Positions 23,829 to 24,575 of a DNA stretch of 64,000 nt are shown one piece after another. Positions within the stretch are counted from its first letter, which is position 1. The number at the start of each line of letters is the position of its first letter. Source of the stretch: an uncultured Methanosarcinaceae archaeon (GTDB taxonomy: Archaea > Halobacteriota > Methanosarcinia > Methanosarcinales > Methanosarcinaceae). The notes beneath the pieces were generated by a model. The model ran no database searches. It was given only the letters and a program-made list of their open reading frames with translations, and was not told where the DNA came from. A program made the position numbers and the translations under genes. The stretch spans positions 288,001 through 352,000 of the forward strand of contig CAVSHT010000012.1 of the NCBI GenBank assembly GCA_963727895.1, given 5' to 3'.

Positions 23829-23942
23829 GAGATTATTCCCCCAGAGTTTATAGAGTTTGCTTATTTTAGTTTACATAGATGTTCTGTAAAGGGATCATAC
23901 ATTATGATCACCCACTACAGAAACACGTTAATCACAGATTAA

Positions 23943-24041
23943 TTAGAAAGGCCAGCAGCAGCCACAATCCTGGTAACAGAGCTGGAATATTTCAGCTGCA
24001 TAGGTGTAGCAGACATTGGAATAGAAAATACTGTACATCAT
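23943..24041 (-). CDS. Small Cys-rich peptide, type B (MMYSIFYSNVCYTYAAEIFQLCYQDCGCCWPF, 32 aa)
   Basis: Hand translation; RBS; synonymous substitutions relative to type A. Confidence 0.82.
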   Translation of the reverse strand: MMYSIFYSNVCYTYAAEIFQLCYQDCGCCWPF

Positions 24042-24154
24042 GAGATCATTTCCCCCAGAGTTTATAGAATTTGTTTAGTTTTCGTTACATAGATGTCCGT
24101 AGAGGGATCAGATATTATGATCACCCCTACAGAAACACGTTAATCACAGATTAA

Positions 24155-24241
24155 TTAGCAGCAGCAGTCCTGATAACAGAATTTGAAGACTTCAGCTGAA
24201 TATTGGTAACAGACATTGGAATAGAAAATACTGTACATCAT
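24155..24241 (-). CDS. Small Cys-rich peptide, type A (identical to 23742-23828)
   Basis: Hand translation; RBS. Confidence 0.82.
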   Translation of the reverse strand: MMYSIFYSNVCYQYSAEVFKFCYQDCCC

Positions 24242-24354
24242 GAGATTATTCCCCCAGAGTTTATAGAGTTGTTTATTTTAGTTTACATAGATGTTCTGTA
24301 AAGGGATCATACATTATGATCACCCACTACAGAAACACGTTAATCACAGATTAA

Positions 24355-24441
24355 TTAGCAGCAGCAGTCCTGATAACAGAATTTGAAGACTTCAGCTGAA
24401 TATTGGTAACAGACTTTTGAATAGAAAATGCTGTACATCAT
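24355..24441 (-). CDS. Small Cys-rich peptide, type A' (MMYSIFYSKVCYQYSAEVFKFCYQDCCC)
   Basis: Hand translation; RBS; two synonymous Ser codon changes and N9K relative to type A. Confidence 0.82.
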   Translation of the reverse strand: MMYSIFYSKVCYQYSAEVFKFCYQDCCC

Positions 24442-24575
24442 AAGACTATTTCCCCCAATAATTTATCGACTTTGTTCATCTTTCGTTATACCCTGGTTTT
24501 CTGCAATTGGGAAATATAAAACCTTATGCTCATTCCCTACAGAAACCGTTTGAACTTCTTCTTTTATGAACTGAT

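Follow-up and report, generated by a model that had tools for sequence, protein, structure and literature searches.

Conserved sense-strand RNA hairpins before the paralogous peptide genes of a methanogen operon, with a possible role in mRNA processing and stabilisation

In the cip-cel operon of Ruminiclostridium cellulolyticum, intergenic stem-loops act both as cleavage signals and as protectors of the ends and give unequal stoichiometry, according to the available part of that account (PMC10311766). For the methanogen Methanolobus psychrophilus, the accessible portion of a genome-wide study places 43.6% of intergenic processing sites in duplexes and describes cuts upstream of ribosome-binding sites and between genes, an A/U-rich motif around the cut, effects on stability and a tuning of operon stoichiometry (PMC5499594). 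The present analysis concerns a set of hairpins in the spacers of a peptide operon carried by a stretch of 64,000 nucleotides (nt) from an uncultured Methanosarcinaceae archaeon (assembly GCA_963727895.1, contig CAVSHT010000012.1, positions 288,001 to 352,000 of the forward strand); this whole stretch is called the window, and coordinates are counted from its first letter. The operon runs on the minus strand from about 24871 to 23670 and comprises the gene for peptide A, four tandem genes for peptide B (B1 to B4) and a terminal hairpin, with a further hairpin (H0 to H3) in each of the four spacers. As in cip-cel, stable stem-loops lie in the intergenic regions of one polycistronic transcript; however, the cip-cel stem-loops are bacterial, non-homologous and, in the portion of the paper at hand, accompanied by mapped cleavage sites (PMC10311766), whereas here one homologous motif stands before paralogous archaeal genes of 25-32 amino acids (aa) and is known from sequence and RNA contigs. 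The M. psychrophilus sites come from the same methanogen family, the A/U-rich loop of our hairpins being a candidate only for their motif, and they differ in belonging to ribosomal-protein and chaperone operons with a loose motif and, as far as the available text goes, no described hairpin family that is conserved (PMC5499594). Intercistronic stabilising stem-loops as such are already known; this particular motif, its recurrence ahead of paralogous micro-genes throughout the genus, and both peptide families are absent from Rfam, Pfam and NCBIfam. Neither the array nor the hairpin was found described in the full-text literature searched, subscription papers and supplements lying outside its reach.

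Three other kinds of system invite comparison. In Bacillus, 5'-terminal stem-loops and Shine-Dalgarno-like STAB-SD elements block 5'-to-3' decay, and we know of no 5' stabiliser of this kind in Archaea. The array resembles these in that the hairpin is followed by a ribosome-binding-site-like G-run far upstream of the real site, either of which is kept alone in some lineages, but the G-run is absent from the window's own spacers. With intrinsic terminators and repetitive extragenic palindromic (REP) 3' hairpins the array shares a stable, GC-containing stem-loop after a gene; unlike them, its hairpins lack a T-run, are read through and are fixed in position relative to the downstream gene. Tandem paralogous genes for small peptides are also found in multi-peptide leaderless bacteriocins. 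The yrzI operon of B. subtilis likewise carries tandem small peptides of ~25-35 aa on one mRNA, which is processed according to the part of its description available (PMC12067863), as the mRNA of the array would be. There is no sequence relation to either, as peptides A and B gave no family in Pfam, NCBIfam or the ESM Atlas, and the array has in addition an adjacent ABC exporter.

All four spacer hairpins of the window lie on the minus strand and are 46-53 nt long. H0 (24495..24547), which is of the ancestral type, folds with -15.6 kcal/mol (z -2.26, 2 of 200 shuffles as good) and scores 86.2 bits with the covariance model described below. H1 (24291..24338), of a derived type with a long apical stem GAUCAU/AUGAUC, reaches -19.7 kcal/mol (z -4.25, 0/200; 29.8 bits, E 7e-5), and H3 (23879..23926) has the same sequence and hence the same fold values (-19.7 kcal/mol, z -4.25, 0/200); H2 (24093..24138) is the most stable at -20.5 kcal/mol (z -5.03, 0/200; 35.3 bits). 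The sequence GTTTCTGTAG is present in the 5' arm of all four, and the 3' arms read TTGCAGAAAACC in H0, TTACAGAACA in H1 and H3 and CTACGGACA in H2. An earlier note on this DNA had placed a stem-loop in each spacer, quoted these 5'-arm and 3'-arm motifs and remarked that, unlike the final hairpin, none is followed by a U-tract. All of this was borne out: z ranges from -2.26 to -5.03 with 0-2 of 200 shuffles as good, every motif is present on the minus strand, and only the terminal hairpin has a T-run (TTTTTCTTT). Because the four units are tandem-repeat copies and H1 equals H3, the likeness of the hairpins inside the window is by descent; copies that are kin cannot by themselves show structural conservation, for which relatives are needed, and the relatives do show it.

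A DNA search recovered homologous arrays in the same genus with the plan A, then two to five B copies, and hairpin-bearing spacers. A covariance model built from 34 spacer hairpins gave 65 matches in 22 of the 59 species genomes of the genus, all of them inside a homologous peptide array and confined to one array per genome (that of G022 lies on two contigs), and none in 116 genomes drawn from 15 other genera in the family. The peptide B gene family was found by profile in 34 of the 59 genomes, and 11 B-positive arrays missed by the model were inspected separately, with the model run with filters off. In a grouping that rests partly on our reading of folds, four of these have an expanded hairpin of ~85-95 nt, in which the outer stem and leader are shared and two inner hairpins are present, four have a reduced hairpin, and three (L053 in G017, L056 in G112 and L057 in G007) have 67-nt spacers with the leader motif but no hairpin. 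The expanded and reduced loci match the model at E 1.7e-6 to 6e-3, except L050 (E 0.09-0.33) and L052 (E 0.42), and the hairpin-less group gives only partial matches of 12-18 bits; whole-spacer fold z is mostly near 0 in the 11 arrays because the long unstructured leader dilutes the hairpin. The claim of the earlier note that a hairpin lies between every pair of genes thus holds in the window and fails across relatives, two arrays being without it in their distal spacers and three species in their B-B spacers.

A scan of 22500-26200 against Rfam, which the note had proposed as a check, found no family at the gathering score with E up to 10; the only two matches were to C/D snoRNAs, at 16.8 and 15.4 bits against gathering scores of 36 and 80 (E 7.5 and 8.8), and are chance-level. 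The DNA matches L012-L015, without peptides or hairpins, were likewise dismissed as chance. Some arrays depart further from the common plan. L056 and L057 have seven B copies and three tandem A copies each, and L032 (G158, 770-2150) holds divergent arrays of A-B-B super-units with a different hairpin in each of three spacer kinds, namely AGAUUGAA.../...UUCAAUCU after A, an expanded canonical hairpin between the B genes and a GGGCCC-based one before the next A. Second loci with B-like gene pairs and no canonical hairpin were seen at L027 (G003:C52, 1514-1749) and at G016:C1:30346-30899.

The hairpins are a genus-specific, selected structure of sense-strand RNA. Among 56 distinct hairpins in the model alignment, 83.3% of cells are paired compared with 78.1% after shuffling, a value that none of 500 shuffles reached, and controls with slid partners pair in only 35-55% of cells; cells in which both partners have changed number 81 against 29.7 expected (0/500). 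At the stem base the pairs switch between C-G (18), U-A (15) and U-G (11), and the window itself takes part in this, since the CUGUAG arm is partnered by UUGCAG (U.G) in H0 and by UUACAG (U-A) in H1 and H3, the relatives having C-G. A model alignment leans towards its model, and RNAalifold was therefore also run on a plain MAFFT alignment of 35 whole spacers, unfitted to any structure. Only the outer stem was recovered, with compensatory changes in four of its eight pairs, and in this stem 30 G.U cells stand against 6 A.C cells, an asymmetry which makes sense only for RNA of the sense strand. Of the covariation check suggested in the earlier note, the RNAalifold part came out positive for the outer stem, and the idea of a structurally conserved sense-strand RNA found support in both the covariation and the G.U asymmetry of the relatives.

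Single folds agree with this: z is below -2 in 47 of the 56 hairpins (mean -3.45), and in 39 of them the sense strand folds more stably than the antisense one (mean -17.3 vs -15.3 kcal/mol). As regards the antisense RNA of a type I toxin-antitoxin repeat, fold energies thus favour the sense strand, the RNA contigs being strandless. In a neutral-drift simulation along a minimum spanning tree, the real neighbour was more stable than random mutants with an equal number of changes in 58 of 66 directed comparisons, and in 30 of 66 it ranked no higher than the 5th percentile. Two sister genomes have AUC/GAU and GUC/GAC, respectively, and on two independent occasions an insertion in the 5' arm is the exact complement of the 3-nt bulge (AUC/GAU and AGC/GCU). 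Such insertions could come from template switching, and it might be argued that the hairpin is a functionless passenger of tandem duplication, a quasi-palindrome kept by concerted evolution or template-switch repair, the more so as the units are tandem repeats, H1 equals H3 and some lineages have lost it. However, it has been kept in 22 species at 65-85% identity with a stability above that of the neutral simulation, its G.U intermediates and strand asymmetry are unlike the products of DNA repair, and unrelated hairpins occupy the other spacers of the most divergent arrays; we regard a passenger origin as highly improbable.

The ancestral type, represented by H0, has an outer stem GG(U/C)(U/C)UCUGCA paired with UGCAGA-A-(R)(R)CC, with one bulged A. 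Inward of it the 3' strand has a 3-nt bulge, followed by a GGGAA/UUCCC stem and an asymmetric internal loop with an A/U-rich 3' side (consensus UUAUAUUU), above which stands a variable apical stem. In the relatives the overall length is 40-61 nt, and the apical parts differ in sequence and length yet fold; to judge from these alignments the inner architecture is rebuilt rather than frozen. On the 3' side of the hairpin follows a conserved, unstructured, purine-rich leader, GGGUAUAACGGGGGAU(G/A)AACAA, and then the ribosome-binding site. In the window the aligned leader motif is AGGGTATAACGAAAGATGAAC (24474..24494, minus strand; GGGTATAACGGGGGATGAAC in relatives), and its pattern is largely specific to the array, within which 10 of 11 matches in five genomes fall. 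Hairpin and leader motif are separable sub-elements: all four spacers of the window retain the hairpin, but the G-run has been lost everywhere and the whole leader motif in three of them, and conversely three species have the motif and no hairpin.

The hairpin keeps its distance from the downstream start codon more strictly than its distance from the upstream gene: from its end to the next AUG there are 48-54 nt in 57 of 58 cases (mean 51.3, standard deviation 2.2), compared with standard deviations of 6.4 for the distance to the upstream stop and 6.9 for that to the upstream start. This fixed distance of ~51 nt would also suit a translational operator, in which a protein bound to the stem base and the single-stranded leader sets the translation of B and not the fate of the mRNA; a conserved stem base and 3' flank with a free apical part are typical of protein-binding hairpins, and the hairpin occurs nowhere else in the genomes. 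Such an operator is nevertheless rather unlikely in our estimation, as the hairpin lies ~35-40 nt from the ribosome-binding site with no predicted pairing to it, no candidate binding protein was identified, and hairpin and leader motif have been lost separately in different lineages.

Three familiar structures were considered and rejected. A bulge-helix-bulge splice motif does not fit on inspection, as there is a single 3-nt bulge on the 3' strand and the opposite side is a 1-nt/6-nt asymmetric loop. A kink-turn or box C/D sRNA was dismissed since inspection found no conserved GA/AG beside the bulge and the snoRNA matches in Rfam were chance-level. An integron attC array is at odds with paralogous genes and with the synteny of the array in all ten genomes checked; no search for an integrase was made.

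Evidence for transcription comes from 23 metatranscriptome runs whose assembled contigs cover the stretch in part (no more than 24% of sampled words); four of these runs were compared. In run X2, an 847-nt RNA contig of a related strain (~91-94% likeness) spans 24070-24871, covering the leader, A, H0, B1, H1, B2 and H2, and ends at 24871 straight into Illumina adapter. Run X1 has a contig of identical sequence ending at 24866 and another reaching 23649, beyond the terminal hairpin, and X24, for which the kind of run is not recorded, extends to both sides and past 24871. The polycistron is thus transcribed by read-through, and the crossing of three hairpins by one contig means that they do not terminate transcription efficiently. 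Contig depth was not used, as it cannot rank the parts of the operon (in X9 it is ~189 over A and 200-5400 over B, with the opposite trend in X1), and nothing can be read from bins without coverage or from contigs that stop within the repeats, where assemblies tend to break.

It might still be asked whether the hairpins are leaky terminators or pause sites which grade transcription along the array, given that hairpins of -14 to -34 kcal/mol follow each gene and that the operon itself ends in a hairpin with a T-run (23670..23702, minus strand, GC-rich, stem 23702-23676, -14.5 kcal/mol), which is kept 3' of the last B gene in relatives. We think this very unlikely. Archaeal termination depends on oligo-T, which follows none of the four; the contig reads through three of them, although contig data leave room for partial termination; and the hairpins follow the downstream gene in position. 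An intrinsic terminator proper was rejected on the missing T-runs at H0-H3 and the contig over 24070-24871, which crosses H0, H1 and H2.

The contig ends hint weakly at a transcript start near 24871, which would give a 5' leader at 24675..24871 (minus strand). A TATA-like box, TATATATA, at 24894..24901 lies 22 nt upstream of this contig end and may mark the distal promoter; in a related methanogen, promoters lie ~19-22 nt from the start site according to the available part of that study (PMC5378194). The ~200-nt leader 5' of peptide A (24871-24675) is conserved across species, with a box AAGTGGCTGACAG, and contains a second, better element resembling a TATA box with its transcription factor B recognition element (BRE) at ~24793-24786 (GAAAATTATATC in relatives). 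The sequence of this leader, with its two BRE/TATA-like elements, suggests either two promoters or a regulatory leader.

The main rival to a role in mRNA fate is that the hairpin marks an internal promoter with an operator, its A/T-rich box in the 3' half being the TATA box and the RNA fold secondary; transcription would start at the conserved GGGUAUAAC just past the hairpin, and the conserved inverted repeat TTCTGCAG...CTGCAGAA around the box would be a regulator site. In the 56 hairpins A/T accounts for 70-95% at positions -14 to -7, counted back from the 3' arm (consensus TTATATTT), and 19-22 nt on from this box, the spacing given for the related methanogen in the part of the study cited above (PMC5378194), one reaches a conserved GGGTATAAC; the sequence conservation of the stem core and the array-specific leader motif would also suit such a promoter. 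However, inspection shows that AAGGTC precedes the box and not an A-rich BRE like that of the operon's own upstream TATA region (GAAAATTATATC, GAAAA), and the half-sites are spaced from ~24 to >60 nt apart. A DNA site needs neither covarying inner stems nor 30 G.U cells against 6 A.C. Moreover, H1-H3 of the window keep the fold having lost TTATAT and GGGTATAAC, and hairpin-less spacers keep the leader with no box at that distance. An internal promoter is therefore, to our mind, unlikely.

We favour, with about as much confidence as doubt, a reading close to the one put forward in the earlier note, in which the hairpin belongs to each B leader as a module for selective RNA processing and stabilisation. 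One operon RNA would be made from a promoter ~200 nt upstream of A, reading through the hairpins, and each B cistron would then have a leader consisting, in order, of the hairpin, ~51 unstructured purine-rich nt, the ribosome-binding site and the AUG. An endonuclease would cut in or beside the spacer, probably recognising the A/U-rich internal loop, which is conserved, and the stem base, which is conserved in sequence; the peptide mRNA on either side would be protected from exonucleases by the stem-loop. The messages for B could then accumulate independently of A and of one another, with an effect on stoichiometry. The Shine-Dalgarno-like leader motif GGGUAUAACGGGGGAU of the relatives may protect in a similar manner by holding a ribosomal subunit, and redundant protection by hairpin and motif would explain why some lineages have the hairpin only, as in this genome, and others the motif only. 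What is found here, intergenic stem-loops within a polycistronic transcript and a stable structure conserved by selection, is what such elements should look like, and the favoured reading fits the strand of the structure, selection on stability over exact pairs, the fixed distance to the start codon and the separate losses. Genes for beta-CASP nucleases and for RNase PH, of the exosome type, are present in this genome and were counted as fitting a role in processing.

However, this reading should be considered with caution, as several observations weigh against it. With a fixed consensus structure, 23 double changes keep a pair against 24 which make or break one, and the rate of change in paired columns is close to that in unpaired ones (0.155 vs 0.169). 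Within the outer stem, the core UCUGCAG/UGCAGA keeps its sequence and does not covary, which fits recognition of DNA or of a protein-bound duplex just as well, and the A/T-rich box at a fixed place in the hairpin has a promoter-like geometry. Copies are kin both within and between genomes, so that the statistics overstate their independence and no figure given here is a probability. The losses from the distal spacers of two arrays and from all B-B spacers of three species make the hairpin dispensable. Lastly, the 847-nt contig shows that the polycistronic RNA is present in uncut form, and at the hairpins no contig ends, whether adapter-linked or coincident, were reported, although contigs cannot show RNA ends.

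A more specific and more speculative form of the processing reading, which we consider improbable as a whole, is a 'dice-and-cap' module of hairpin and Shine-Dalgarno-like motif, in which a specific endoribonuclease would dice the precursor and the 5' stem-loop or a standby ribosome site would block 5'-to-3' decay. If true, it would be the first archaeal counterpart of the bacterial 5' stabilisers and would allow the mass production of a new aromatic peptide family, exportable by the adjacent MacB-type ABC transporter. The catalogue of cis-acting RNA elements governing the fate of mRNA is poor for Archaea, and Rfam has nothing like this hairpin. A compact repeated hairpin with natural gains, losses and compensatory variants across at least 22 species, in an operon seen in anaerobic-digester metatranscriptomes and with some carrier genomes that are complete single contigs, presumably of cultured strains, offers a convenient natural system for the study of archaeal mRNA processing and stabilisation and of which nucleases read which signals.

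The work also flags two unannotated peptide families. Peptide A (24576..24674, minus strand as are all genes of the operon) has 32 aa and is strongly Phe-rich, with a GGGGG ribosome-binding site 7-8 nt upstream, and its homologues head most of the arrays examined (16 loci aligned); it shows a strict F-x-F-x alternation that is suggestive of beta strands. The B peptides are Tyr/Phe/Cys-rich and, as with every gene of the operon, are preceded by GGGGG. B1 (24355..24441, 28 aa) is backed by a coding test and the family profile, and B2 (24155..24241, 28 aa), B3 (23943..24041, 32 aa with a C-terminal GCCWPF extension) and B4 (23742..23828, 28 aa) by the profile. The B units form a tandem repeat with a period of 200, 3.7 copies and 84% matches (Tandem Repeats Finder). 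The B reading frame behaves as coding: 48% of single-base codon differences are synonymous, compared with 23.5% and 23.7% in the other frames, and variation in the alignment is highest at the third codon position. An ATG within GGGGGATGAAC was rejected as the true start, as it is found in 9 of 35 aligned spacers with an inconsistent frame. Only six representatives among 1.84 billion proteins match the B profile, so that the B peptides must be mostly uncalled genes. AlphaFold2, run on an alignment of 56 family members, predicted for B a single helix at residues 3-25 with a mean predicted local distance difference test (pLDDT) score of 67, which is too weak to build on.

In all ten genomes checked the array divergently adjoins an ABC ATPase, a CARDB/DUF11 surface protein and a MacB-type permease, with a second ATPase, a second CARDB protein and a MEDS histidine kinase as further neighbours; this conservation does not extend to the lysyl-tRNA synthetase found downstream in the window. 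Domains among the neighbours in the window include MEDS, PocR and PcrB, a content that would fit the genus Methanosarcina. From the conserved neighbours a role of the peptides in export or signalling can be guessed at. Several relatives carry one more conserved open reading frame (ORF), Cys-rich and 22-24 aa long (...CSKRF...), which follows a conserved T-rich block and lies about 300 nt beyond the terminator, at oriented positions 2545-2613 in L002, 2182-2250 in L005, 1661-1729 in L031 and 2299-2373 in L007. Within the window, small ORFs at 25524-26054 had no Pfam match, and tblastn identified 25542-25634 and 25643-25939 (plus strand) as frameshifted, diverged remnants of an ABC ATPase paralogue, with 77% identity over residues 2-32 and 39% over residues 77-175; in relatives this ABC ATPase gene is intact and lies between the peptide array and the CARDB gene. 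Further off, a PocR/PAS sensor region at 17321-19795 (plus strand) is present as three consecutive ORFs of 362, 206 and 118 aa and may be either a broken or a multi-gene sensor.

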